Positions 10,139 through 63,670 of a stretch of 64,000 nucleotides of DNA are shown in pieces. Under the pieces are notes generated by a model, which saw only the letters and a program-made list of their open reading frames with translations, had not been told where the DNA came from and did no database searches. Source of the DNA: Escherichia phage VTCCBPA_211; sequence record PP989838.1, one strand, 5' to 3'. Position numbers and translations under genes: made by a program. The stretch's first letter is position 1. Every line of letters starts with the position of its first letter.

Positions 10139-10320
10139 ATAAGTATAAAGTTCTGTTTAAAGATACTAACGACGCTGGTGATATGCGAGCTATGGACCTA
10201 GATGCTGACATGTTTAACTTCTCTGATGGCAAAGTGGCCTTCTTTCAGGGAAGTGAAGCTGTTGCAGTGTTTGAGAGTGCAGCAATCTGCGGTGTAATCA
10301 AAATCTTTATTACAGAGTAA
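10135..10320 (+). CDS. hypothetical protein (61 aa)
   Basis: ORF. Confidence 0.3.
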   Translation: MNKYKVLFKDTNDAGDMRAMDLDADMFNFSDGKVAFFQGSEAVAVFESAAICGVIKIFITE

Positions 10321-10389
10321 TCTGCTTTAGCCTCTTCGAAAGAGGAGGCTAGTTCGGATAAACTAAACAAACCAACAAAGGTATAGATA

Positions 10390-10809
10390 ATGTCAGAAGT
10401 AATTTACGTAGCAACTTATGGTTCTCTTCGTCGCGGTCAAGCTAACTATCTAGTTAATGACCGAGCTGGTGCTAAGTCAATTGGTGAAGGTTGGACTGAA
10501 GACAACTTTGATCTGTTCCGTTATGGTGGTTCCTACTTCCCAAGCATCTCTCTCGCACACAGCAATAACAATAAGCCTGTTCGTGTAGAAGTGTTTGCTA
10601 CTGACAAAGCAGGTCTGGAAGGCCCATATGACCGACTGGAAGGTTACAATAAGCATAGTCCTGAAGATAGTTTCTACAACAGATCTCTGATCAACGTCAA
10701 GATGGATTCAGGGGAGGTTGTTGAATGCTATATCTACCATATCGACGAAGAACAAGATGTTCTGGTTGAATCTGGCGACTGGTCAGAGTATCTGAAAAGT
10801 GAATCTTGA
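10390..10809 (+). CDS. gamma-glutamyl cyclotransferase-like (AIG2/GGCT family) protein
   Basis: N-terminal YVATYGSLRRG motif (YGSL) and size typical of the AIG2/GGCT fold. Confidence 0.5.
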   Translation: MSEVIYVATYGSLRRGQANYLVNDRAGAKSIGEGWTEDNFDLFRYGGSYFPSISLAHSNNNKPVRVEVFATDKAGLEGPYDRLEGYNKHSPEDSFYNRSLINVKMDSGEVVECYIYHIDEEQDVLVESGDWSEYLKSES

Positions 10810-11002
10810 GAAAAGGCAGGCTCTTCGGAGACTTGAAGCCAAGTATTTAATGCTACGGTGCAAAATCAACCGACATGAACGTTTCGTTGAAGCTGCACAA
10901 ACCAAAAACTTTGAATCATCAGTGGAGATGTTCAAGACCCAACTTTCTTTTTATAGGAAAGAACAGGAACAAGTGTGGGATGAAATTCGTTCGTTCTACT
11001 AA
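10799..11002 (+). CDS. hypothetical protein (67 aa)
   Basis: ORF. Confidence 0.3.
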   Translation: MNLEKRQALRRLEAKYLMLRCKINRHERFVEAAQTKNFESSVEMFKTQLSFYRKEQEQVWDEIRSFY

Positions 11003-11028
11003 GCTCAAGGATTCCAAGGAGGAAGAGC

Positions 11029-12276
11029 ATGTCAAAGATCATTTTGGGAGACACAGGTTGTAAGGAATGTATCTCTCATGGTCGTGATAAAACCCACAAC
11101 CACATGATTCTCTTCCGTAACGAAGAGACTGGTGAGGAGTGGGGAAGTTGTAACCGTTGTGGGAATTACGAAGTGTTCGAAAAGGGCACTACACCTACTC
11201 CAAACGAGAAGAAAGAGTTATCCCCTGAAGAGTTGAGAGAAGTCTTAGATGATTGCTTAGAGCTTCCTCAGGGTGAACTTACTCGCCGTTTAATCCCTAA
11301 AGCTGTATCAGAGCGGTTTGAGTGTCGTATTGGCCTCAGTCAAACTGATGGTCAGACACCAGACAGTTACTTCTTTCCTCGTGAACGTGATGGAAACATT
11401 GTCGGATACGAGGTTAAGCTGCTAGATAGTAAGAAGTTCTATTACGTCGGCAGTGTGAAAGAAGCAGATTTGTTCGGTATGGCACAAGCTCAACGTGGAG
11501 ATGTGTACAACAAGAAGCTGTTCATTTTTGAAGACCCGCTATCCTGTATGTCAGGTTTCCATGTCCTTACAGCTTTTACAAATGCAACAAATATTAAACC
11601 AGCATGTGTTTCTTTACCGTTCGGTGCAGGTTCAATCTCTTCTGTGTTGTCTCGTAACCGAGACTTCGTAAATGGTTTTGAGGAGGTTGTGCTCTGCATG
11701 GACAACGATGATGCAGGTGAGATAGCTTTAACAAAAGGTCGTTCTTTATTCCCTCATGTTAAGTTTGCTCGTATTCCTAAAGGAACTTTCCCATACAACG
11801 GTGTGGAGAAAGAGATTAAGGATGCGAATGACATGCTTCTGTCTGGTCGTGGTCAAGAGTTATTCAACATTCTCAAGTACTCAGCAAAGCGGGAATCTCC
11901 TGCTGGAGCTGTAACAATCTTTGATTGTCTTGATGATGCTCTGAAGAAAGCGGAGTGGGGTATCCCATATCCGTGGAAGACTCTGAATGAGATGACCTTC
12001 GGTATTCGATGGGGAGAGGTGGTAGCAATTGGTGGTGGAGTAGGGAGTGGTAAAACACTCATTGCTCACGAGCTGGTTGCTCATCTGTGCTTAGAGCATG
12101 GTTTTAATGGAGGTGGCTTCTTCTTGGAAGAGAAGGTAGGCATGTCTGTTAAGAACATTGCTGGTAAGTCAGCATCAATTCCTTTCCACCGACCTGATGT
12201 TGAATATGATGAGGAGGATTTGCGTAATGAAGCACTTCGTTATGCAGACAAATTCTTCTTGTATGACAACTTCGGT
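11029..12276 (+). CDS. DNA primase-helicase (T7 gp4-like), exon 1
   Basis: N-terminal Zn finger CKEC...CNRC, TOPRIM-like VVLCMDNDDAG, Walker A GGGVGSGKT; ends at YDNFG, matching T7 gp4 HLYDSFA; strong AAGGAGGA SD. Confidence 0.8.
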
Positions 12277-12997
12277 TAACACAATGGCCGAAGTAAAACT
12301 AGGTGAATTCAGGGAAAGCTAAGTCGAAAGATATGCCAATCCTGAGCGAAGCCCTTCTCCTCCTATAGCACAAGGAGGTAATTCATGAAACGAATCACAG
12401 GATACGAAAACTACACCATTTCTGAAAACGGTGAGGTTTTTAATAACAGAGGTGCTCAATTAAAACCTTTTGTGAATAAAGGCAGAAATGAGTACTTGAG
12501 AGTGACACTAAGCTGTAGAGGGAAATCTAAACATTTTCTTGTTCACAGATTGGTTGCTCAAGAATACCTTAAAGATTTTAACCCGAATCTCCAAGTAGAC
12601 CACATGGATGGTGACAGTAGAAACAACCACCACTCAAACCTCCAAATGGTTACTTGCAAAGAAAATAACTCACTTGCTTCACAAAGAGAGTGGGAAAAGG
12701 GTGGTAATCAAAAACATTCTGATGATACAGTAAGGGAGGCCATAAGGCTTTCTCTAGATATGTCAACAGATAAGGTTGGGGAATTACTAGGTATCTCAGG
12801 GAGACAAGTCAGACGATACAGAAGTTTGACAAGTCGAAGATTTGTTGGAGAAGGGAACGTGCAGAGACTATCCGAAAGGAGTACACTGGAAGCTAATGAC
12901 AGTGGAAGCGCCTAGCCCCTTAACAGGGTGATGATATAGTCCAATCCCGTGGGAAACTGCGGGCAGTAGCCATGATGCTACGGGTAAAGGAGTTGCG
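12277..12997 (+). mobile_element. group I intron in the primase-helicase gene
   Basis: P1: exon end CTTCGGT pairs with internal guide GGCCGAAG including the U-G wobble at the splice site; P4-like TCAGGGAAAG / AATCCTGA; R-like CAGAGACTA and S-like GATGATATAGTCC; G at 12997 before the in-frame exon 2. Confidence 0.6.
12385..12915 (+). CDS. HNH homing endonuclease (intron-encoded)
   Basis: HNH-family motifs (FLVHRLVAQEYL ... DHMDGDSRNNHHSNLQ); sits inside the intron with an AAGGAGGT SD. Confidence 0.8.
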   Translation: MKRITGYENYTISENGEVFNNRGAQLKPFVNKGRNEYLRVTLSCRGKSKHFLVHRLVAQEYLKDFNPNLQVDHMDGDSRNNHHSNLQMVTCKENNSLASQREWEKGGNQKHSDDTVREAIRLSLDMSTDKVGELLGISGRQVRRYRSLTSRRFVGEGNVQRLSERSTLEANDSGSA

Positions 12998-13558
12998 TCC
13001 TTTATTGAATTATTGCAAAATGAATGGGAAGACATTAAACAGTGTATCCGTTTCTGGGTAGTTGAAAACCAGTGTAAGTTCATCATCCTTGATAACATTA
13101 CCGCTCTGGTGTCTCATTTAACACCTTCAGAGATTAACACTGAAATCAGTAAGATTGCTTCCGAGCTTGCTGGTATGTGTAAAGAGTTAGACTTTACCGC
13201 TTTCGTGCTATCTCACCTTAATGCTCCGGCAGGTGGTGCTCCTCATGAAGAAGGTGGACAGGTACGTGAAGTACAGTTCACTGGCTCTCGTTCTCTTATG
13301 CGTTGGTGTCAGTGTATCATTGGCTTTGAGCGTGACAAGCAAGCTGACGGCTTAGCTAAGAACCTCTCAGTCATTCGATTACTGAAAGAACGTAACTACG
13401 GTCAGACAGGTGTATGTTATACTAAGTATATCAGTGAAACCGGTAGACTTGTAGAAAGGGAAGACTTTGAAGTTGATGAAGATAATCCATTCGTTTTAAC
13501 TAACGGAGAGGATGCAGCTTCTCTCGTCAACCAAGCAGATGGAGCTTCACCGTGGTAA
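12998..13558 (+). CDS. DNA primase-helicase, exon 2 (helicase C-terminal part)
   Basis: [14 protein letters not shown] (Walker B-like, compare T7 DVIILDHISIV) and downstream helicase motifs; reading frame is open upstream of the track start; exon start inferred from the splice prediction. Confidence 0.7.
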
Positions 13559-14109
13559 AGAAAAAGAAGAAAGTGTTTGCATTCGATATCGAGAGTAATG
13601 CACTGTACGATGACATAACTAAAGTATGGTGTATTTATATCTTCGATGTTGAAACTGGTGAAAGGTGGGGCTATCGGCCTCACCAAATTGAAGATGGGAT
13701 TCGTAAACTTACAGAAGCAGATGTACTGGTGGGTCACAATATTATTGACTTCGACCTTTGTGCTCTGAAGAAGATGTATCCCAATCTGATTAACTATCGT
13801 TTTAACGTCTTCGACACTTTATGTCTTAGTCGATATCTTAAACCTGACCGTATTGGTGACAGTCCTGAGTATCCGAAAGGCGACCCTAGACGTGGCCCAA
13901 GAGGTCATGGTTTGAAGCAGTGGGGTGAGTTCTTAGGAGAGCTTAAGGGCGATTATGGTGAGCAAGAGGAAGCATGGGATGCTTTCACTGAAGATATGTT
14001 TACTTATTGTGAACAGGACGTTAACTTAACTGTTAAGGTTTATCTTTTCTTGTGTGAGCTCACGGGATTTGACCCTTACGACCCACCTTCATTATATTGG
14101 AAAATGTAA
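13552..14109 (+). CDS. DNA polymerase I family 3'-5' exonuclease domain protein (separately encoded)
   Basis: Exo I FDIESN, Exo [12 protein letters not shown], Exo III YCEQDV; collinear with the T7 DNA polymerase N-terminus; ends in a stop after the exo domain. Confidence 0.75.
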
Positions 14110-14110
14110 A

Positions 14111-15481
14111 ATGATTGTTATCCCGATTAACCAAATTGAAGATAAGGTTGCTCAACAACCTGATATCACTGTTGGTCGTCACTTCATTGAACAGTTGATT
14201 AACAACAATTTAGTTCCAGACGGTATCTGTCCCATCATTACTGGTGGGGCTGTTCGTGATGCTGTTCTTAACAATATAGCACCACATGACATTGATATCT
14301 TTATTGTCAGAGGGCAGCTTCCTGCTGGTAGAAACACTTTCACATCAACTGACCGTTGGCAAGCTCTTGGAAGAGAGATTGAAAGTAATGTGAAGGAATG
14401 GCTAGAGTCGCAAGATATTGAGTATTCATCACTTCTTGCTGAAGCTACAAACGAATCCTATGCGGGGGGTTCTCAATTAACATTCACTGATATTATTGAG
14501 TTTCAGTGGAATGGGGTTCGTATCCAATTCATGTTTAATTATCCTACTTCTATTGAAGAGATATTGGATAATTTTCCTATGATGTGCCGTGGTGCGATGA
14601 CTCTTGACAACCTATTCATGACTCCTCATGGATATTTGGCTATGACCGCTCCTTGCCCGGTGGTTGTTTCTAGTCGTGAAATCAGATACGTTCACAAAAA
14701 GTGGCCTAATTCACAAGTGTTAAGATTCTCAGCTCCATCTGTTGCATATCAATATATGGCCCAAACTCGATACCTTCCTACACCTCAGCCAGTTAGTCAT
14801 CTGGTTAGTGGATTAGGTCAGGTTTCTCTTATTGAGGATACAACAAGTGCTCAATATTGTGTTAACCGAGACATGAGTCTATTCTTTGGAATCCCTTATG
14901 AAGAGATTCTATTAATGTCAAGCGTTCACGGGTCTGGTCAGATTAGTGCGTATTGGTCTGAAGGGTTGACAAATTTAACGACTAACACGGGTGGTGATCT
15001 GCTTGGTCGAGAAGATGAACCTAACCGACACAATGCAATTGAAGGGGTTTTTGTAGCCCCTGCAATGCGTAGAGCACAAGAGTCACGAAGAGTAAGCCCT
15101 ACTCGTAGAGCATCTTTTGAAGAAGCTCTCGGTGTTACAAGTGATTCTATGGAGCGATGGATGGCTAGACCCTCTCGTGGTCGACCAAATGGTTTAACTG
15201 TTAGCGCACGTCAGTTCTCTGGTCAGGGTTTTGCTGTCGGTGATATCAACGCACCTGTTAGGGCTGTGTGGACTGATGAAGGTGTGGCCCAAGATGTGGT
15301 AGGCAGTCTCTCCGATCTTGATACTCCTTCTCATGAGGAACTCGCTGAGGCTGTCAGCCGCAATCTCGCTGATCGCTTTATTACTAACAACCCTGAAGTA
15401 TTAGAACCTCAAACCCGTACAGTTCGGTTTGCTGATGAAGCGGGTCGTGGAATCTCTTTTGACGTAGAAACAAATAACTAA
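14111..15481 (+). CDS. nucleotidyltransferase (CCA-adding enzyme / poly(A) polymerase head-domain-like)
   Basis: GGAVRDAVL...PHDIDIFIV matches the GGxVRD...DxD signature of class-II tRNA nucleotidyltransferases; ATG at 14111. Confidence 0.45.
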   Translation: MIVIPINQIEDKVAQQPDITVGRHFIEQLINNNLVPDGICPIITGGAVRDAVLNNIAPHDIDIFIVRGQLPAGRNTFTSTDRWQALGREIESNVKEWLESQDIEYSSLLAEATNESYAGGSQLTFTDIIEFQWNGVRIQFMFNYPTSIEEILDNFPMMCRGAMTLDNLFMTPHGYLAMTAPCPVVVSSREIRYVHKKWPNSQVLRFSAPSVAYQYMAQTRYLPTPQPVSHLVSGLGQVSLIEDTTSAQYCVNRDMSLFFGIPYEEILLMSSVHGSGQISAYWSEGLTNLTTNTGGDLLGREDEPNRHNAIEGVFVAPAMRRAQESRRVSPTRRASFEEALGVTSDSMERWMARPSRGRPNGLTVSARQFSGQGFAVGDINAPVRAVWTDEGVAQDVVGSLSDLDTPSHEELAEAVSRNLADRFITNNPEVLEPQTRTVRFADEAGRGISFDVETNN

Positions 15482-15490
15482 GGAATAAGA

Positions 15491-16024
15491 ATGAGTTTAC
15501 TAGGAAGTATTGAACTGCACGATGTAATTGACAATGGCTATCTGAATGCGGAGCATAAATATGTTAACGCTGCTAGTGTGGATATCCGTATTGGTGATAC
15601 TATCCTTGTTGAAGAACAGGCTGATGGCATCGTTGATATTGATGCGAAAGAGAATCTTCAGTGGAAGGAAGTAAAGATTCCTGAAGAGGGTTTGGTTATC
15701 ACTCCGGGTCAGTTCTTCTTGGCTCACTCCATGGAGGAGTTTAATCTTCCAGATAACATCTCAAGTCTGTTTGTCCTACGTTCATCTATGGCTCGTTGTG
15801 GTTTGAACCACCTCCACGCCGGGTGGGCAGACGCAGGGTTTAACAGCAGTAAGCTGACATTTGAGTTCCATAACGTAACCAAGCATCATAGCTTACGAGT
15901 TCGTGCTGGTATGCGTGTTGGTCAGATGGTGATGTTTGAGCACTCTCATGCAGGGGAACATTCCTATGCAGTGAAGGGTCGTTATAATAACTCTGAAGGT
16001 GTAGTTGCATCTAAAGGTGTGTAA
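15491..16024 (+). CDS. dcd: dCTP deaminase family protein
   Basis: SVDIRIG, LRSSMARCGL, GWADAGFNSSKLTFEFHN, GMRVGQMVMFE and C-terminal VVASKGV align with E. coli Dcd. Confidence 0.65.
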   Translation: MSLLGSIELHDVIDNGYLNAEHKYVNAASVDIRIGDTILVEEQADGIVDIDAKENLQWKEVKIPEEGLVITPGQFFLAHSMEEFNLPDNISSLFVLRSSMARCGLNHLHAGWADAGFNSSKLTFEFHNVTKHHSLRVRAGMRVGQMVMFEHSHAGEHSYAVKGRYNNSEGVVASKGV

Positions 16025-16231
16025 ATGACTGAAGAAGAGTTCCAAGAACTGAAAGGTTTGACTACCGAGGTTCAATTAAAAGCTATGACATTTGGTCGAG
16101 CATGTCATCGATTTGATACTTGTGATGAAAGCAGTAAAGAAGCTTGTAAGAGTTATATGGATAAGAAGCACCTTGAATGGGGTAAAGCTTCTAATGATCT
16201 TTATGACTACATGAAGGGTTTAGTAAAATGA
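16025..16231 (+). CDS. hypothetical protein (68 aa)
   Basis: ORF. Confidence 0.35.
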   Translation: MTEEEFQELKGLTTEVQLKAMTFGRACHRFDTCDESSKEACKSYMDKKHLEWGKASNDLYDYMKGLVK

Positions 16232-19200: not shown

Positions 19201-19334
19201 TGTTGGAAGAAGATGACGATGTGTTCTGCACCAAGTGTGGGATGACAGTTGATGATGCATATGACCCAAGTGTAGAAATCTGCCCTTGTTGTGGAGTATG
19301 TGAATATTGCTGTTCCCACAACTCAGAGGATTAG
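19200..19334 (+). CDS. small Cys-rich zinc-ribbon protein (44 aa)
   Basis: CTKCG ... CPCCGVCEYCC; start overlaps thyX stop. Confidence 0.3.
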   Translation: MLEEDDDVFCTKCGMTVDDAYDPSVEICPCCGVCEYCCSHNSED

Positions 19335-19346
19335 CAGGAATTTCTG

Positions 19347-19580
19347 ATGAAAATCAAACATATTACAGATATTCAGGAGGCATTTAGGATGCTTCCTCGA
19401 AGAGAGAAGGATAAGATTAAAAAGCTTATTCAAGTTTATGGTCATACATCTAAAGATGATGTAGACTATATGCCTTCTACTTTCGTAGAGTGTGGGATTG
19501 CTCGCGGTTTCACATTCGACCATAAAGTGTTTCAGCAATTCGTTGACCACTGGAGAAAAGATGGAAAAGAAAGTCTGTAG
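19347..19580 (+). CDS. hypothetical protein (77 aa)
   Basis: ORF. Confidence 0.35.
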   Translation: MKIKHITDIQEAFRMLPRREKDKIKKLIQVYGHTSKDDVDYMPSTFVECGIARGFTFDHKVFQQFVDHWRKDGKESL

Positions 19581-24682: not shown

Positions 24683-25370
24683 TAACACAATGGGCGTCTA
24701 TAAATTCCTTTAATTCGGTGGACATCTAGAACAGATAATACCGAGCCAAGCCATCCAATCTGCCTTGAAGACAAGGAGGTGGATTATGATTTGCAGGATT
24801 TGTAAAGAAGATAAAAGCGAAGACAATTTCCACAGAAACAGAACAAACGTGACTGGACTAGACTACAGGTGTAAAGCTTGTAGGAGAGAAGAAGCACGAA
24901 TTGGAAGAGAGAGCAATTACTTCCAACACTACTGTAGAGGAAAGAAATCTGAATGTAAGATAAAGGGTTATGATTTTGACTTAACTCCAGAGTTCTTAGA
25001 AGAGATTTGGACAGGATATTGTCCAATATTTGGTGTAGAAATCTCAAGAGCTTCGGAAGGAAGAGGATCTCACAACTCAGCACATTTGGACAGAATAGAT
25101 TCAAGTAAGGGTTACCTAATAGGTAACGTATCTTGGATTAGCGGCAGAGCAAACCGTATAAAATATGATGCTACTGCTAAAGAGCTTAGATCTATTGCAG
25201 ATTGGATGGAAGGTGTAACGACTAGTCGTGATGAGTTTAGCGACGTAGGGCCAAGCGGCTCGAAACAAGGAACCTCTTAAAAGAGGAAGAGATAGTCTGC
25301 TCTGCATGGGGACATGCAGCAGTTCATAAGAGAACGGGGGGAGTGGTAGCGTACTCCCTTGAACATCAGG
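24683..25370 (+). mobile_element. group I intron in the DNA polymerase gene
   Basis: Begins with the same 11-mer TAACACAATGG as the helicase intron; guide GGGCGTCT pairs with exon end AGACGTT; R-like AACGACTAG and S-like AAGAGATAGTCT; G at 25370; splicing restores KTF-IYGFLYGAG. Confidence 0.6.
24786..25280 (+). CDS. HNH homing endonuclease (intron-encoded)
   Basis: HNH motifs (HLDRIDSSKGY ... NVSWISGRANRIK), Cys pairs; ATG at 24786 with AAGGAGGTGG SD. Confidence 0.75.
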   Translation: MICRICKEDKSEDNFHRNRTNVTGLDYRCKACRREEARIGRESNYFQHYCRGKKSECKIKGYDFDLTPEFLEEIWTGYCPIFGVEISRASEGRGSHNSAHLDRIDSSKGYLIGNVSWISGRANRIKYDATAKELRSIADWMEGVTTSRDEFSDVGPSGSKQGTS

Positions 25371-25869
25371 TATCTATGGATTTCTATATGGGGCAGGCGC
25401 AGCTAAGATTGGAGAGATTGTTGGAGGAGGCGCTCAAGAGGGTGAAATTCTCAGAGAACGTTTCTTAGCAGAATGCCCTTGTATCCCAATTGTCTTGGAG
25501 AGAGTACAAGCTCGTGCAGAAACAGGCACTCTTGAAGGTGTGGATGGTCGTAAGTTGACCATGAGACGGGATGCCACTGGTAAAGTTATGGTTCATAAAG
25601 CACTAAACACTTTACTTCAGAGTGCGGGTGCTATTGTCATGAAATATTCTATTCTCTTCACAAACAAGTGGGTAGATCAGCAGAACATTAGGGGTAACAA
25701 AGTAATTGACTACCATGATGAAGCTCAGTGGTCTGTTAACCGTAACGATGTTGATAAGATGAAAAAGATAGCTGAGACTTGTGTCAAGAAGGCGGGTGAG
25801 TACCTAAACATGCACTGTGAGCTAGCTTCTGATTGTAAAATCGGACTGAATTGGATGCAAACTCACTAA
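25371..25869 (+). CDS. DNA polymerase I family polymerase domain, exon 2
   Basis: In-frame YGFLYGAGAAKIGEIVGGG (rest of motif B) and motif C VIDYHDEAQW; the reading frame is open upstream of the track ORF. Confidence 0.7.
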
Positions 25870-27311: not shown

Positions 27312-27320
27312 GAGGTCTTT

Positions 27321-27824
27321 ATGGCTGAAGTTTATTTTGCAGGGGATGGTCACTTAGGCCATCGCAACATCTGTAGTTTTCGTAAGCAATTTAAAACCAT
27401 CGAAGAACACGACAAAGCAATCCTAGCTGCATTTGATCATGTAACTAAGCGTGATAAAATCTTCTTTACCGGTGATTGGGTGTTTGAAAAGTATGCCCTT
27501 GATATCATCGCTGAAGTAAGAGGAGAGAAGCATCTAGTCTTAGGGAACCATGACAGGTTAGAACTTCTCCCTGATATGATGAAAGTCTTCCGTAGAATCT
27601 CTGGTGATTATAAATATAAAGAGTTTTGGGTAACTCATATTCCTATTCACACTGATGAGATGAGAGGGAAGTTTAATATTTATGCTCATACTCATAACCA
27701 CGTAATTGATGATTGGAGATATTTCTGTACATCAATGGAGCAAATTAACTATAAAGCTGTTTCTCTGCAAGAGATTAGGAAGGTCTTTGATGAAAGAAGA
27801 AAAGAACAAGATCTCATTATTTAA
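27321..27824 (+). CDS. metallophosphoesterase (calcineurin-like phosphatase)
   Basis: GDGHLGH, GDWVFE and LGNHD motifs. Confidence 0.55.
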   Translation: MAEVYFAGDGHLGHRNICSFRKQFKTIEEHDKAILAAFDHVTKRDKIFFTGDWVFEKYALDIIAEVRGEKHLVLGNHDRLELLPDMMKVFRRISGDYKYKEFWVTHIPIHTDEMRGKFNIYAHTHNHVIDDWRYFCTSMEQINYKAVSLQEIRKVFDERRKEQDLII

Positions 27825-37955: not shown

Positions 37956-39635
37956 TTATTGAGTGAACCAGCTAGTATCTGAAGAATCGGATAAAGCACC
38001 ACCCTTCAATTTAGGAGGCTTGTCATCAGGGAATGTTTTATCATGAACTTTACTGTGTCCACGAGACCATTCTTTAAACTCTTCAGTAGTGAGTCGAACA
38101 GAGCCAGGAGCAAAAATAGAGTTAGCAGCTCTGATAGCATTTTCAGGAGCCAAACCACTGTCAAGAATCAAAGATTCCACTAGAGGGGCTACTTGGTATT
38201 TAGTTGCCTCTTTATCAATTTCTTGAATCTCTGTACCAAGTGCTTTAAGCCACTTAATGTTTGCTTCGGTTGGGCCTTGACCTGCCATCATCTGAATCTT
38301 GTTCAACTTGTTGTTAACCCAATCTGGATCACCTGTAAGCTCATTCATAACTTCTCCGTTAATAGAAGCTAAACCACCCTGAATAAGTTTAGTCAAGTTC
38401 TCAATAGCAGCACGTTGCTGAGCTGAGTTCTCTTGAGAGTTTGCACCAGTTCCTAGTTTAGAAATAGCAGCTTCTGTAGGAGCCATCCACTTGTTTCGAG
38501 AAGCTAGGACATTAATAACAGGACGATAAGATTGCTGTAGCTTATCTCGTAAGTTAGGGGTAATACCACCAAGCTCCTCTGTTTTTTCCCACTTGGGAGA
38601 TGTTCTACGAACATTGTGTTCCTTCTTGAACAAAAGGTTGTCACGAACAATCTCACCACGAGCTTCTGCCAGAGCTAATTGGTTTTCCAAAGTAGCCTTA
38701 CGATTTCTCTCAGCAGATTCTTCACTGATAGCTTGACGTCTATCCCACTCAGCATTCTGACGTCTTTCACGCTCAGCGTATAAAGCTTCCTGTTGAAGAG
38801 GGTCTTTAGCTCTCATCTTCAGAAGAGAAGGGTCTCCGCTTGCGATAGCAGCAGCAATGGAGTCTTGAGAGAAACCTTGTTCAACCAATGCATCACGGTT
38901 AGCTTCTAGTTGTTTCTTAGTCTCATCTTGGTTAGCCATACCTTGACCAATTTGGAAAGCTTCAATTGGAGACTTACCTGACATGATTGAAAGACCTACA
39001 CCCATTAAGCCTGTGTAGAAACTAGAGTTCTGATAGAACGGCTCTTTCTGTAACTTATTCCAAGCCTCTGAAGGGTCTTTAGCTTTTGCAATCTGCATGA
39101 TATCAGAGTTAACACGTTCTTGATCTTTTGCACGAGTAGCCCCAGCCATGCCTTCACTAGTGTCCTGACTTTGAGCAAGAGTGGTAACAACACCTTGTGC
39201 CTGCTCTACTTGAGAAGGAGTAAACTCTGTAGGACCATCTTCGAGAGGCTTAGTCGGAGGCGTCACCGGAAGAGGGTCGCTAGGCATAAGTCCCGCATCT
39301 TGTAAACCTTGATCAGTGGATAGGTTAGGATTAGCTGCTACAGGAGCTGGTTCCCCAACATCAATGCCCTGAAGGCTTGTTGGAGTTCCTCGATTCTGTT
39401 GTTCCATAAGACGTTGCTGGAATCCCGGATTCACCATAGCATTCTGATCTTCTTCTGCCTGAGAGACAAGGCCAGCAAGAGATGAAGGTACAGCAGGACG
39501 TTGGTACATAGAAACATCTGATGTCTGAATAGGTCTAGCCATATAAGGAGAGGCCGAAGCCGCTCCCGGATTAACACCATAGAAAGTATTTCTCGGGTCA
39601 CGACTCCTGACCTGAGCGTAAGTTGTCTGTTGCAT
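37956..39635 (-). CDS. internal virion protein (559 aa)
   Basis: Long ORF with AGGAGA SD in the structural operon. Confidence 0.4.
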   Translation of the reverse strand: MQQTTYAQVRSRDPRNTFYGVNPGAASASPYMARPIQTSDVSMYQRPAVPSSLAGLVSQAEEDQNAMVNPGFQQRLMEQQNRGTPTSLQGIDVGEPAPVAANPNLSTDQGLQDAGLMPSDPLPVTPPTKPLEDGPTEFTPSQVEQAQGVVTTLAQSQDTSEGMAGATRAKDQERVNSDIMQIAKAKDPSEAWNKLQKEPFYQNSSFYTGLMGVGLSIMSGKSPIEAFQIGQGMANQDETKKQLEANRDALVEQGFSQDSIAAAIASGDPSLLKMRAKDPLQQEALYAERERRQNAEWDRRQAISEESAERNRKATLENQLALAEARGEIVRDNLLFKKEHNVRRTSPKWEKTEELGGITPNLRDKLQQSYRPVINVLASRNKWMAPTEAAISKLGTGANSQENSAQQRAAIENLTKLIQGGLASINGEVMNELTGDPDWVNNKLNKIQMMAGQGPTEANIKWLKALGTEIQEIDKEATKYQVAPLVESLILDSGLAPENAIRAANSIFAPGSVRLTTEEFKEWSRGHSKVHDKTFPDDKPPKLKGGALSDSSDTSWFTQ

Positions 39636-49127: not shown

Positions 49128-49220
49128 TTACGTATCTCCTATGTATTAACCTCTTGGGATATATTAGTTTCATTACCTACTAGCTCTAGTTACTACTAAA
49201 GCCCCCGAAGGGGCAATAGA

Positions 49221-51401
49221 TTATTTACCAGATTTTAACTCTGATACCTCTTTCTTAAGATCTTCGATCTGTTTCATAAGTTCGAGGATAGCTTCGTGAT
49301 GGAGGGCGGCAGCAACACCATAAGTATCAACTGCTTTAGTGTCTTCTACAACTGTACCATCAACAAGTTCTGTCTCCCCAATATTCTTAACTGCATCAGG
49401 GAATACAGTTTCAACATCCTGAGCAACAAAGCCAAAACCAGTAGGGTTGCCAGTAGTTTTGAGGTTCCAAGAAACACCTTTAATCTGCTTCATCTTATCC
49501 AGAGGGTTATCTATCCGTTGGATGTTCTCTTTAATTCGAATATCAGAAGAAGGGTTTACTGTAGCGTACACAGCACCAGCAAAACGAGTCTGGTACGTAC
49601 CATCGCTCATCAGCTGAGAGTAATAAGCATAGCTGCTACCAATCTTCAATTCTACAACTGAGACTCGAGTTTTGTCAGCACCTGTACCAAAACTATTACC
49701 CCAATGTTCAAACCAAGCTTGATCTCTAGCTCTGCTCCCTCCAGGTATTACTGACATACCTAAAGTCTGGGTTCCGGGTTCCGTACTCGTAATTCTCAGT
49801 CTCCCTGTGCCTACATAAATCTCATTGGTACTATTAGAGAAGTCAAACTTCATATTACCACTTCGAATAGAACCACCACTTGGGAGTACGAAAACTCCAC
49901 CATCGGTAAAATCATAAACCTGAGTAACATTCTTGGTTTTATTAAAGACGTTCATACGTCCTACGTAAGTACCGCCAACCTCACCATTAGCTCTTAAAGA
50001 AACCTGAGCTTCAGTGTCCCCACCTACTAGGTACTGAGAACGCAGTTCTCCACCATTTACAGTTGTTCCAGAATTAGGAAGGGTAGTATCTTGATTAATA
50101 ACAGCCCAAGACGTATTAGCAGCAGTAAATCCACCGTGTGCACGGATAGTCCAAACACCAACAACGTGACTTGGGTAAACTTCGGTTGTAGAATCACGCC
50201 CGTATACGGAGTTGCCGTCGGATAGCTTGAATGTAACGGAACCTGTGGCGATCGTCCCTCCGCTGGTTATATGTGCGGTGTTAAGCAGTCCTGGTTTGAA
50301 TGCCCCGCTGGCTGCCGATGGACCCATGGTTTGGAATAGCCCTGCTACATTGGGAGCAGCGTTCTCCCTAATCATACCATTGTTATTCGACACACCACCG
50401 TCACCACGAGCAAACAGGCCAGAGACAGAATCAGCCCCCGTGAACCCGTTAACGCCGTTCTTCTGAACACCGTTCCTGTCAGGTACACGGAACGTTGTTT
50501 CTCCGTCACCAAGTGAATACTTGCCGCGATTGGCTGGGTCTGCAAGCCACTCCGCATCACTGACAGGAGTTAGAAGCTGTGCATAAGCCCACAAGTCAGG
50601 GTAATCAGCACGATTAAGAAGTTGTCCATCAGACAGCACTTCAAAAGCTGGGATAAAAGCTCGACTATCTCGTAAGTGGAAATCACCAATACCAAAGTTA
50701 GAGATACCACTCATCGTAGGACCACCAGAGCCACCACCACTGTTTCGAAGCTGTCTCAAAGTAACCGCATCACAATCACCAACTGCATCAGGGACGGTTA
50801 CTGGTTGAGTGAAAGTAACTTTCTGTGTGAGCTGTTTGATATCAGAGTTAATTCCTGTACGAGTAACACCAATAGTCCGACCTTTGGAGTCTTTAACGTA
50901 AGAACCAATCGCAGCGAAAGGTAAATCCTCAATCTCAGGGCGGTATCGTTTAGAATAAACAGGGTACTTAGTTTCTACCCCAGAGTCATTCTGGTCAACA
51001 ACCTGAAGACGACCAGCGGAATGAATCTCTACACCTTGAACTGAAGAGGCATAACTACCAATCTTGATTGAGTTATCAGTAGTCACTTTCATCATATCCA
51101 CAGACTCTACACCATTAGCACCAGTAGAGCGGAATGGAGTATCATTAACAACCCAAGGGTCTTCTCGGAACAAAGCACCGGACATGATAGGTTGAATTGA
51201 ATCCAGCACAAAATCTTTAGATGCACCTTCTGCTTTAGTTTGGTAAGTAGCAGCTGCGTCAGTTTTCTGTAAATATTTTCCGGTGAGATCAACAGCACCA
51301 GCCTGTCCATCTACAGTAGAAACACCAACAACAGCCGCATCTCTGGTTACAACTACATGAGGCATCATTATGCCAGATTTGGGCATTAATTCTCTAGACA
51401 T
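49221..51401 (-). CDS. tail spike / tail fibre with C-terminal intramolecular chaperone (peptidase S74-like) domain
   Basis: C-terminal SSDIRIKENI ... KGVSWNLK ... GFVAQDVETVFPDAV ... coiled-coil tail typical of self-cleaving chaperone domains. Confidence 0.65.
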   Translation of the reverse strand: MSRELMPKSGIMMPHVVVTRDAAVVGVSTVDGQAGAVDLTGKYLQKTDAAATYQTKAEGASKDFVLDSIQPIMSGALFREDPWVVNDTPFRSTGANGVESVDMMKVTTDNSIKIGSYASSVQGVEIHSAGRLQVVDQNDSGVETKYPVYSKRYRPEIEDLPFAAIGSYVKDSKGRTIGVTRTGINSDIKQLTQKVTFTQPVTVPDAVGDCDAVTLRQLRNSGGGSGGPTMSGISNFGIGDFHLRDSRAFIPAFEVLSDGQLLNRADYPDLWAYAQLLTPVSDAEWLADPANRGKYSLGDGETTFRVPDRNGVQKNGVNGFTGADSVSGLFARGDGGVSNNNGMIRENAAPNVAGLFQTMGPSAASGAFKPGLLNTAHITSGGTIATGSVTFKLSDGNSVYGRDSTTEVYPSHVVGVWTIRAHGGFTAANTSWAVINQDTTLPNSGTTVNGGELRSQYLVGGDTEAQVSLRANGEVGGTYVGRMNVFNKTKNVTQVYDFTDGGVFVLPSGGSIRSGNMKFDFSNSTNEIYVGTGRLRITSTEPGTQTLGMSVIPGGSRARDQAWFEHWGNSFGTGADKTRVSVVELKIGSSYAYYSQLMSDGTYQTRFAGAVYATVNPSSDIRIKENIQRIDNPLDKMKQIKGVSWNLKTTGNPTGFGFVAQDVETVFPDAVKNIGETELVDGTVVEDTKAVDTYGVAAALHHEAILELMKQIEDLKKEVSELKSGK

Positions 51402-62524: not shown

Positions 62525-63181
62525 TTACTTACAATCACCAACGGACAGGTTAAACATCTTACCTAGAGCAATCGTCTCACCTTCCCACGGAAGTTCTGCA
62601 CCCTTCTCTTCCTCTAAAAGAATAGAGCCGTCGACCAAAAATTTTTCGTAGTCTCGCAGTGCGTCGTCTACTAACTCACTCTTGTGAATCCACGTAATTG
62701 TTTCTGTACCATCCTCTTCGATTCGAACATCACGATGCCATTCATCTTTGGAGGTAATGTAATCATGGAGCATTTCATATTCAGCTTCTTCAATCATCTC
62801 AATCATTGCACGAGCATAGTCAGGGAGGTGATCATGTTTAGTAGATTCATATTCAACTACTTCTAGATTGGAAGGACACTTACGTTTAACTTCCTTTGCT
62901 ACAGTGAAATAATCTTTCACATCTTTCGCTTCTGTACGAGGAATCAAACCTTCCCATATTTCACGGGTTGAAGGAGCATAACCATACACAGAACCATGAG
63001 CCAGTTGTTTTGCCATCTCAACTCGGGACTTACCTCCAGTAGTTTCATGAACACGATTCAGATAGAGAACATCCTCTGATAAAGGACGGATCGAACCATT
63101 ATAAACAACCTCGCCTTTACATCCCATGTTCTCATAGATTGCATTCAGTGTATTAGTTCCTGTCATATTGTTATTCATCAT
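62525..63181 (-). CDS. hypothetical protein (218 aa)
   Basis: ATG at 63181 with AAGGAGAG SD; the longer track ORF would overlap the upstream gene. Confidence 0.4.
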   Translation of the reverse strand: MMNNNMTGTNTLNAIYENMGCKGEVVYNGSIRPLSEDVLYLNRVHETTGGKSRVEMAKQLAHGSVYGYAPSTREIWEGLIPRTEAKDVKDYFTVAKEVKRKCPSNLEVVEYESTKHDHLPDYARAMIEMIEEAEYEMLHDYITSKDEWHRDVRIEEDGTETITWIHKSELVDDALRDYEKFLVDGSILLEEEKGAELPWEGETIALGKMFNLSVGDCK

Positions 63182-63431
63182 TCTCTCCTTCAGTGTCAGT
63201 GTTATCACTATAACGATAATCTTTAAGTGTCTCAGCCTTGTAGGACACAAAGCATCTCATGTACAACCAGCCCAATGAACTAAGGTCCATCGTAGCATCA
63301 AAATCTTCATCGTCGTCCAAGTCTACCAATCTACCCAAACAACTCAATACTTCTCCTCCTTCTTCAAATACAAATGCACATTTTTCAGTGCGGAAGTAAG
63401 GAATCAACTCTGATAAAAAATCTAGAATCAT
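63171..63431 (-). CDS. hypothetical acidic protein (86 aa)
   Basis: ATG at 63431 with GAGGAG SD. Confidence 0.35.
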   Translation of the reverse strand: MILDFLSELIPYFRTEKCAFVFEEGGEVLSCLGRLVDLDDDEDFDATMDLSSLGWLYMRCFVSYKAETLKDYRYSDNTDTEGENDE

Positions 63432-63463
63432 TTTATATCTCCTCTGATATAAGAGAGTGATCA

Positions 63464-63670
63464 ACCCATAAAGGCGTACTCATCTAAAGGCCCACCCATG
63501 TATGAACCCATGTACGCTGAAGTAGTTCACTACGTTCAAGTAAAGGGCATGTCATAAAGGCACCCCCATAAAGGCTATGTCACGTTAAGGCCTATCCATC
63601 CATGTGCTATGTTTAAGCTTACCACATTTACTACATCTCCAAGTGGACTTATAAAGGGTGTGAACTCTTT
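63464..63670. repeat. cluster of short direct repeats (ATAAAGG-type iteron-like repeats)
   Basis: At least six copies of (C)ATAAAGG(C) plus repeated CCATGTA within about 200 bp of non-coding DNA. Confidence 0.4.

Follow-up and report, generated by a model that had tools for sequence, protein, structure and literature searches.

Comparative analysis of a 64,000-nucleotide (nt) stretch of Escherichia phage VTCCBPA_211 (sequence record PP989838.1; hereafter the window) indicated that positions 12277 to 13015 are very probably a mobile, subgroup-IA-like group I intron of phage type inserted in an essential, T7 gp4-like primase-helicase gene. The insert is 739 nt long, lacks the P2 helix of some relatives, and contains an open reading frame (ORF) for an HNH homing endonuclease; its elements and the flanking exons lie on the plus strand. 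An initial annotation, prepared from the letters alone, had proposed that an HNH-bearing group I intron splits this gene, and that proposal was borne out by the empty site in relatives, a covarying fold, ORF-less siblings scoring above the Rfam threshold, and matches of the encoded protein to Pfam families and to the structure 1U3E. Its 3' end had been placed too far upstream.

By overall similarity, the window is assigned to a phiEco32-like Kuravirus (Gordonclarkvirinae) of E. coli. A megablast search of 11029-13558 against GenBank phages returned 98 records, nearly all from phiEco32-group phages of Escherichia or Shigella; the matched parts were 98-99% identical, and each match covered just 71% of the query, in two pieces. 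Whole-window blastn against phiEco32 was collinear with a clean break: 673-12275 corresponded to phiEco32 62070-50464 and 13016-16028 to 50462-47507, the two flanks were 95% and 91% identical, and the 739 nt between them had no counterpart. The interrupted gene is the equivalent of phiEco32 gp75, annotated as "DNA primase/helicase". Exon 1 (11029-12276; 416 codons, taken from the ORF list; DNA 95% identical to gp75) encodes the zinc finger, the TOPRIM primase, the helicase Walker A motif, and motif 1a, and ends in ...YDNFG with GGU as its last codon. The ORF at 11029-12279 terminates ...FFLYDNFG with the stop codon TAA at 12277-12279. Exon 2 (13016-13558, stop codon 13556-13558) opens with QNEWEDIK... 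and carries Walker B (FIILDN) and motifs 3 and 4. The stop after YDNFG and the downstream Walker B region had both been read in the initial annotation. Taken separately, the exons scored below Pfam cut-offs (Toprim_2 in exon 1, 18 bits against 22.1; DnaB_C in exon 2, 21.5 bits against 27), and the spliced protein matched T7 gp4 structures in PDB with an E-value of ~1e-32.

The boundaries of the insert were seen directly by comparison with intron-less alleles. phiEco32 reads ...TTC GGA CAG AAC GAA TGG..., encoding YDNFG|QNEWEDIK, and the window reads ...TTC GGT [739 nt] CAA AAT GAA TGG.... The empty site in gp75 is TATGACAACTTCGGA|CAGAACGAATGG, with TTCGGA|CAGAAC at its center, and the predicted ligated exons of the window are ...TTCGGT|CAAAATGAA.... 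Joining 12276 to 13016 gave a 596-amino-acid protein identical to phiEco32 gp75 at 595 of 596 positions with zero gaps. When a 100-nt probe representing the ligated junction was compared with GenBank, 74 records matched it end to end in one piece (best, 98/100), and all 74 of these relatives were intron-less and contiguous at exactly the 12276|13016 point. The predicted 3' splice site is thus G13015, the terminal G of the intron, which is fixed by the intron-less allele and conserved in the other copies, and which lies 18 bases past the G12997 proposed initially. An intron of 721 nt with SFIELL at the spliced junction accordingly did not stand: these residues are encoded by intron sequence (the 3' strand of P9.2 plus the tail) that is open in frame by chance, and G12997 itself ends the P9.2 loop. 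Neither of the two fallback sites that had been named fits: G12982 forms the one-base linker joining P9.1 to P9.2, and G12961 belongs to the 3' strand of P9. A spacing close to that of T7 gp4 had also been cited; the argument itself was sound, since the corrected junction aligned without gaps across the splice point with the T7 gp4 segment FHLYDSFAEAETDRLL, but the alignment is gapless only with the 13015 site and so speaks for that site and against 12997.

Three synonymous changes flank the site relative to phiEco32: GGA to GGT (position -1), CAG to CAA (+3), and AAC to AAT (+6). The T at -1 was present in all intron-bearing copies; without it, the U-G wobble at the 5' splice site could not form. 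The A at +3 was likewise universal among them and can lengthen P10. The +6 change was not universal, one metagenomic copy (L002) having C. An intein was also considered and rejected: a stop codon stands at the junction, the insert length cannot be divided by three, and a Hint domain is lacking.

Among GenBank phage records, none carried the primase-helicase intron. Searching a large metagenomic protein set with the HNH protein yielded 11 homologues (59-94% identity), and every contig that was fetched placed the HNH gene between 5' and 3' primase-helicase parts, or as much of these as a short contig held. For seven distinct metagenomic loci (designated here by L numbers) both intron ends were located. 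Their introns measured 737-744 nt, not multiples of three. Compared with the window, these seven copies had HNH proteins 60-94% identical and exon 1 proteins 54-100% identical. Several lineages had exon 1 proteins only 54-60% identical to that of the window, with HNH proteins at 60-68%; L002 combined an identical exon 1 protein with an HNH protein only 94% identical. L006 had one additional base in the intron tail. The sequence ...UUG|CAAAAYGA was kept in the seven relatives that reach the 3' end and in the two ORF-less copies described below.

The window and these seven copies, with the ORF removed, formed the comparative set from which the fold was derived. P1 spans 9 base pairs (12269-12277/12286-12294), including U12277-G12286, and pairs the exon sequence ACUUCGGU (12269-12276) with the guide GCCGAAGU (12287-12294). 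The pairing recognized earlier, of CTTCGGT (12270-12276) with GGCCGAAG starting at the tenth inserted base (12286) and with a U12276-G12287 wobble, is part of this helix; the wobble lies at the 5' splice site, and together with two adjacent G-C pairs it was found in 8/8 family members. P2 is absent in the window, and L004-L011 have an 8-base-pair P2 and just a 4-base-pair P1. The 5' strand of P3, CUAGGUG (12299-12305), pairs with CGCCUAG (12909-12915), which includes the HNH stop codon; four of its seven pairs were compensated, and 100% of its alignment cells were paired. The P4-P5-P5a domain occupies 12308-12346. P4 is UUCAGGG/UCCUGAG (12308-12314/12340-12346), and both P5 (AGC/GCC) and P5a (GUC-GAAA-GAU) lie between its strands; P5a covaries, GUC/GAU in some copies corresponding to GGGA/UCCU in others. 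P6 joins CCCUUCUCC (12352-12360) to GGAGAAGGG (12847-12855), the latter within the HNH coding region, and closes a loop of 486 nt in which most of the HNH gene lies. RNAalifold found P6 unaided, with 5/9 pairs compensated despite the coding function of its 3' strand.

P7 is formed by GAGACUA (12864-12870, A12865 bulged), part of the conserved CAGAGACUA, and UAGUCC (12937-12942), inside the conserved GAUGAUAUAGUCC element at 12930-12942, and makes a pseudoknot with P3. The P4-like pair TTCAGGG/TCCTGAG, the R-like CAGAGACTA (12862-12870), and the S-like GATGATATAGTCC (12930-12942) of the initial annotation were all present, and the strands 12862-12870 and 12930-12942 aligned to the RF00028 consensus (CAGAGACUA/AUAUAGUC) with high posterior probability. 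The conserved strands of P7 constitute the predicted guanosine-binding helix. Downstream, the fold contains the peripheral hairpin P7.1 (UCC-GAAA-GGA, 12871-12880), P7.2 (CACUGG...ACAGUG, 12884-12904, 5/6 pairs compensated), and the P8 hairpin (C-CCCU/AGGG-U-G, 12916-12930, U12929 bulged, 3/5 pairs compensated). P9 (12946-12963), P9.1 (12966-12981), and P9.2 (12983-13006, with the loop GUUGCG at 12992-12997) all covary and agree with the single-sequence fold, and the intron ends in a tail, GAAUUAUUG, at 13007-13015. A minimum-energy fold of the window's ORF-deleted core reproduced all helices except the P7 pseudoknot. The hairpins P7.1 and P7.2, placed after P7 and ahead of the 3' strand of P3, mark subgroup IA, which includes the T4 introns. 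By these two hairpins the window intron appears typical of subgroup IA; P2, P7.1, and P7.2 are among the features by which group I introns are classified (PMC3984707). Throughout the family, the P9.2 loop had a GUWRCG-like motif (GUUGCG, GUAGCG, GUAACG), and it may be a tertiary-contact loop. A similar loop, GGUAGCG, tops the last hairpin (~25346-25353) of a second intron, located in the gene for DNA polymerase and described below.

The fold was more than chance would produce. Plain MAFFT alignment followed by RNAalifold recovered P2, P3, P4, P5, P6, P7.1, P7.2, P8, P9, P9.1, and P9.2, with 31/72 pairs compensated. This alignment misregistered P5a, P8, P9, P9.1, P9.2, and the P1/P2 region between two intron subtypes; in a curated alignment, the hairpin blocks were rebuilt by hand and P1 and the P7 pseudoknot were added. 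Standard pairs then filled 96.6% of 681 cells, versus 36-43% when partners were slid, and 37/90 pairs showed double changes, versus 5-9 when slid. None of 500 shuffles reached the observed pairing values. P7 and P7.1 were invariant in all eight sequences and hence contribute no covariation evidence. The core helices P3 to P9 expected of a group I intron, including the P3/P7 pseudoknot, were present in the alignment.

The Rfam group I family, RF00028, has a gathering score of 50 bits. Run in E-value mode, the search matched RF00028 as the sole Rfam family in the 64-kb window at E<=0.1, in two pieces: 12267-12552 at 32.1 bits (P1-P6) and 12741-12963 at 27.7 bits (P7, P3', P8, P7', P9). The two matches are halves of one intron with the HNH ORF between them, and their low scores are attributable to the 486-nt ORF-bearing loop, not to damage of the core. 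L011, a homologue that retains the ORF, scored 42.1 bits end to end. The covariance-model search that had been suggested as a check gave these half-matches in E-value mode and no match at the gathering threshold.

The HNH gene (12385-12915), which the initial annotation had also located inside the insert, encodes a 176-amino-acid protein of NUMOD4, HNH_3, and helix-turn-helix regions. Its family was seen directly in Pfam and structural comparisons: HNH_3 scored 36.3 bits (cut-off 24.8) and NUMOD4 26.1 bits (cut-off 23.4), the helix-turn-helix family HTH_23 reached 20.6 bits, under its cut-off of 24.6, and the I-HmuI structure PDB 1U3E matched at E=3.7e-12 with the catalytic VDHxDG...NN...NL aligned. 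The best phage matches were I-HmuI-type proteins at <=37% identity, and an exact-protein look-up found no record. I-HmuI, I-BasI, and I-TwoI are nicking enzymes, and the most likely activity predicted for the window protein is accordingly to nick a specific strand close to the insertion site. It is quite likely to be an active homing enzyme for the primase-helicase site.

The gene starts in the P6 loop, traverses P6', P7, P7.1, and P7.2, and stops with a UAG inside P3', so that its last 69 nt also encode P6', P7, P7.1, P7.2, and P3'. A strong Shine-Dalgarno sequence, AAGGAGG, lies 7 nt ahead of the ATG and is covered by a hairpin, CCUCCU/AGGAGG (12359-12378; CCUCCU strand 12359-12364), that has a local folding energy of -9.0 kcal/mol and shares two bases with P6. 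Pairing in this hairpin was kept in 8/8 sequences. With the ribosome-binding site in a hairpin and the 3' end overlapping the ribozyme core, HNH translation is probably restrained, which would avoid disturbing splicing. Expression of intron ORFs that reach into the core is tightly controlled (PMC3984707). A sigma-70 promoter scan, whose model does not cover phiEco32-type late promoters, detected no promoter-like site in the intron, and an internal HNH promoter was thus unsupported by that scan.

ORF-less copies were sought in metagenome contigs by a 3'-junction pattern and in IMG/VR by a 5'-junction pattern, and two were found at the same site, L023 (253 nt) and L015 (291 nt). The metagenome scan returned 17 loci, among which only L023 was genuine; the other 16 were discarded as having neither the conserved P7 strand elements nor the 5' splice-site motif. 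The exact window-type 5'-junction pattern had 0 matches in IMG/VR. L023 (ERZ1034915 NODE_75, 7977-8229, minus strand) lies on a 68-kb contig and is P2-less like the window intron. Its exons encode exactly ...FFLYDNFG| and the start of the window's exon 2, and 87/88 aligned bases were identical to the window between the end of exon 1 and the start of P6, P4' included. The 3' part was ~92% identical, with the differences mostly in P7.2, P8, P9, P9.1, and P9.2, several of them compensatory. In place of the ORF-bearing P6, L023 has a short hairpin, CUAGGAU-ACA-UCCUAG. L015 (2157-2447, minus strand) still has the Shine-Dalgarno sequence and ATG of the HNH ORF as well as its tail, and is read as an internal deletion of the endonuclease gene. 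On RF00028, L023 and L015 scored 86.3 and 86.2 bits against the gathering score of 50, which strongly supports family membership of the window's ribozyme core. The distribution seen directly in these records was sporadic: the site was occupied in the window, in seven metagenomic lineages, and in two ORF-less forms, and was empty in 74/74 GenBank relatives. Such occupancy, together with ORF-less and deleted forms, is what a homing element passing through gain and loss would be expected to show.

In the proposed pathway, the whole gene would be transcribed into a single pre-mRNA, in which the intron would fold with P1 (including U12276-G12287), the P3/P7 pseudoknot, P4-P6, P8, and the peripheral P7.1/P7.2 and P9.1/P9.2. 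Free guanosine bound in P7 would direct cleavage after U12276, and the released exon 1 would attack after G13015, ligating GGU|CAA and restoring the 596-amino-acid ...YDNFG|QNEWEDIK... protein. In a mixed infection, the I-HmuI-family enzyme would nick or cut an intron-less allele near the insertion site, and repair off an intron-bearing genome would copy the intron together with flanking exon bases.

Several points weigh against the intron as described. A gathering-threshold Rfam scan of the whole window gave no match, and both window scores on RF00028 (32.1 and 27.7 bits) fall under the 50-bit gathering score. Because hand curation adjusted the alignment to the structure, its pair counts favor that structure, although the uncurated alignment gives the same helices. 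P5 in the window consists of two standard pairs and an A-C mismatch. P10 is weak, with 2 pairs in the window; by eye, 2-3 pairs at most could form between the exon 2 CAA and UUG/AUG 5' of the guide, and P10 was not used as evidence. The Shine-Dalgarno hairpin is backed by conservation only, its changes being one-sided with no double compensatory change. Finally, self-splicing, cleavage by the endonuclease at a particular target, and translational control are activities that we infer from sequence.

These points were weighed against other explanations of the same region. The same intron could be spliced after G12997, giving a GGU|CAAAAUGAA junction and six extra residues, and the open frame that follows G12997 does run into exon 2. 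However, intron-less alleles that are 95-99% identical have none of those 18 nt, G12997 ends the P9.2 loop with 12998-13006 forming the covarying 3' strand of that helix, and the lengths of relatives here vary by non-multiples of three (as with the extra tail base of L006). With UUG|CAAAAYGA kept in all copies and the T7 gp4 alignment gapless solely with the 13015 site, splicing after G12997 is scarcely credible. It is equally hard to sustain that the gene is truly split by a free-standing HNH insertion, with no splicing and with polypeptides of 416 and ~181 amino acids assembling into the helicase. A stop codon does end exon 1, a TTG-initiated ORF is present at 13013-13558, and homing endonucleases are reported to have fractured genes in metagenomes (PMC2677866). 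Yet the TTG at 13013 has no preceding Shine-Dalgarno sequence, a full group I core surrounds the HNH gene and is compensated across relatives whose exons are ~55% identical, and ORF-less copies of 253 and 291 nt, at 86 bits on RF00028, interrupt the same base, which would be senseless for a mere endonuclease insertion. Such a split gene is extremely improbable.

A group I intron could also be present as a decaying relic that self-splices poorly or needs a protein helper and leaves little full-length helicase. The missing P2, the mismatched P5, and the sub-threshold Rfam scores of the window variant fit this description, but the low scores have their explanation in the 486-nt ORF-bearing loop, and the core helices are all preserved, as are the U-G wobble and the terminal G. 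Moreover, the gene encodes the replicative helicase of this phage type, its exons are intact with 595/596 residues identical to phiEco32, and the 68-kb contig with the same P2-less core has a coverage of 916 in its record name, suggesting a viable variant; decay is therefore very unlikely. The intron might instead serve as a switch, with splicing efficiency setting the ratio of primase-only protein to full primase-helicase. Since UAA, the first codon of the intron, follows exon 1 directly, an unspliced message could give a separate primase-only protein, and the 416-amino-acid product would comprise the zinc finger, the complete TOPRIM primase, and the helicase portion with Walker A. The two products would loosely resemble the two forms of T7 gp4. 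As a function of the intron, such a switch is unlikely. A mobile group I intron at 12277-13015 that would be spliced from the primase-helicase message is the interpretation we retain, and the gene is best annotated as two exons, join(11029..12276, 13016..13558), instead of as a pair of fragments and an endonuclease.

A second probable group I intron, of 688 nt, was observed at 24683-25370 in the DNA polymerase gene, within Pol A motif B (RDNAKTF|IYGFLYGAG). At its 5' end, GACGU|UUAACACAAUGGGCGUC forms a P1 that includes a U-G wobble, and the intron terminates in G25370. Its bases 2-12, UAACACAAUGG, are identical to the opening 11 bases of the primase-helicase intron. With 24683-25370 spliced out, a 614-amino-acid gapless alignment with phiEco32 gp53 was restored. 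The DNA polymerase gene needs a two-exon annotation too. Rfam gave a weak match of 19.4 bits in the 3' part. The ORF inside this intron (24765/24786-25280) has an HNH-like AHLDRID...GN motif and no Pfam match at E<=0.01. No GenBank phage record carried the polymerase intron, and only its 3' core resembles Pectobacterium and Klebsiella phage introns. Polymerase exon 2 (25371-25869) was 69% identical to phiEco32 in protein and 70% in DNA, against 95% for exon 1, and looks like a tract that arrived together with the intron, by co-conversion or recombination, from a donor that had diverged.

Additional mobile elements and neighboring genes were noted. Extra ORF-less group I introns occur in the same primase-helicase gene of related phages from metagenomes, in L007 (749-1059 and 2303-2617), L008 (1028-1338 and 2582-2838), L012 (269-567), and L015 (1612-1926); they sit near residues 332-342 of the window protein, by Walker A, and near residue 496, and scored 26.6 to 62.1 bits on RF00028. 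L007 has three introns in one gene. In L002, the intron-bearing relative nearest to the window (a Logan contig, ERR1302956), an Endonuclease_7-family ORF (4170-4613) lies between the helicase and polymerase exonuclease genes; it is absent from the window, where those two genes overlap at 13552-13558. The window encodes the polymerase 3'-5' exonuclease in a small gene of its own (13552-14109; Pfam DNA_pol_A_exo1), as in phiEco32; this gene is followed by a gene annotated as nucleotidyltransferase in phiEco32 (region to 15481), the polymerase domain lying ~9 kb away. This split exonuclease/polymerase arrangement is the usual layout of the genus and is not caused by introns. Blastn also left other window segments without a phiEco32 match, at 38017-38732, 49215-50576, 62876-63552, 27312-27798, and 19203-19550; the 1.36-kb segment 49215-50576 is in the tail-fibre region, and the others could hold mobile genes.

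Among the closest characterized systems are the DNA polymerase introns of Bacillus phages SPO1 and SP82 (I-HmuI/I-HmuII), likewise group I introns in a replication gene and encoding the same NUMOD4/HNH_3/C-terminal helix-turn-helix endonuclease. I-HmuI reportedly nicks one strand, as described by Goodrich-Blair and Shub. The window HNH protein is ~35% identical to the SP82 and CampHawk copies. Unlike those introns, that of the window is in a primase-helicase gene, not a DNA polymerase gene, and in a podovirus of a Gram-negative host. The T4 introns of td, nrdB, and nrdD (sunY), of subgroup IA2, likewise have a P1 guide of the GGU|...GGCC type, a P3-P9 core, P7.1/P7.2, and P9.1/P9.2, and carry the endonuclease gene in a peripheral loop, as in the window. 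In td, the ribosome-binding site of the I-TevI endonuclease is in a hairpin, a feature likewise seen for the window HNH gene. The T4 intron endonucleases are of GIY-YIG and related types, not I-HmuI-like HNH enzymes, and, unlike the T4 introns, the window intron has no P2 and a 9-base-pair P1, with an ORF in the P6 loop that reaches through P7, P7.1, and P7.2 into P3'.

Other similar elements are the DNA polymerase group I introns of T7-like and further enterobacterial phages (Vi06, Aeromonas MQM1, Kuravirus KBNP1711 and Bas89, and Gamaleyavirus Bas93/94), which were 74-87% identical to the window core at 12854-12946 and ~85% identical over the P1-P5 part (12283-12353); some of these records annotate an intron or endonuclease there. 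They occupy another gene and site, the likeness is limited to core pieces of ~70-90 nt, and their endonucleases are unrelated or distant. Helicase genes of the staphylococcal myoviruses K, G1, Romulus, and Remus are also interrupted by group I introns (PMC5526547), but these belong to an unrelated phage group and helicase family, and no sequence similarity to the window intron was detected here. Genes known to host phage group I introns with endonuclease genes include those for DNA polymerase, ribonucleotide reductase, thymidylate synthase, and terminase (PMC3984707), and our literature searches on phiEco32 or Kuravirus and introns, within the library that could be searched, returned no description of the primase-helicase intron or of any other in phiEco32-like phages. 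The primase-helicase site exists in several states (empty, with an ORF-less intron, with an intron bearing a complete HNH gene, and with an intron whose HNH gene has an internal deletion), a natural series for studying the gain and loss of homing endonuclease genes. With P6', P7, P7.1, P7.2, and P3' all within coding sequence, it is also useful for examining how coding and ribozyme functions coexist. The element contains nothing unexpected for specialists: its type is ordinary and long known among phages, and what is new is the gene that hosts it, which in phiEco32-like phages encodes a T7 gp4-type primase-helicase, and the site within that gene.

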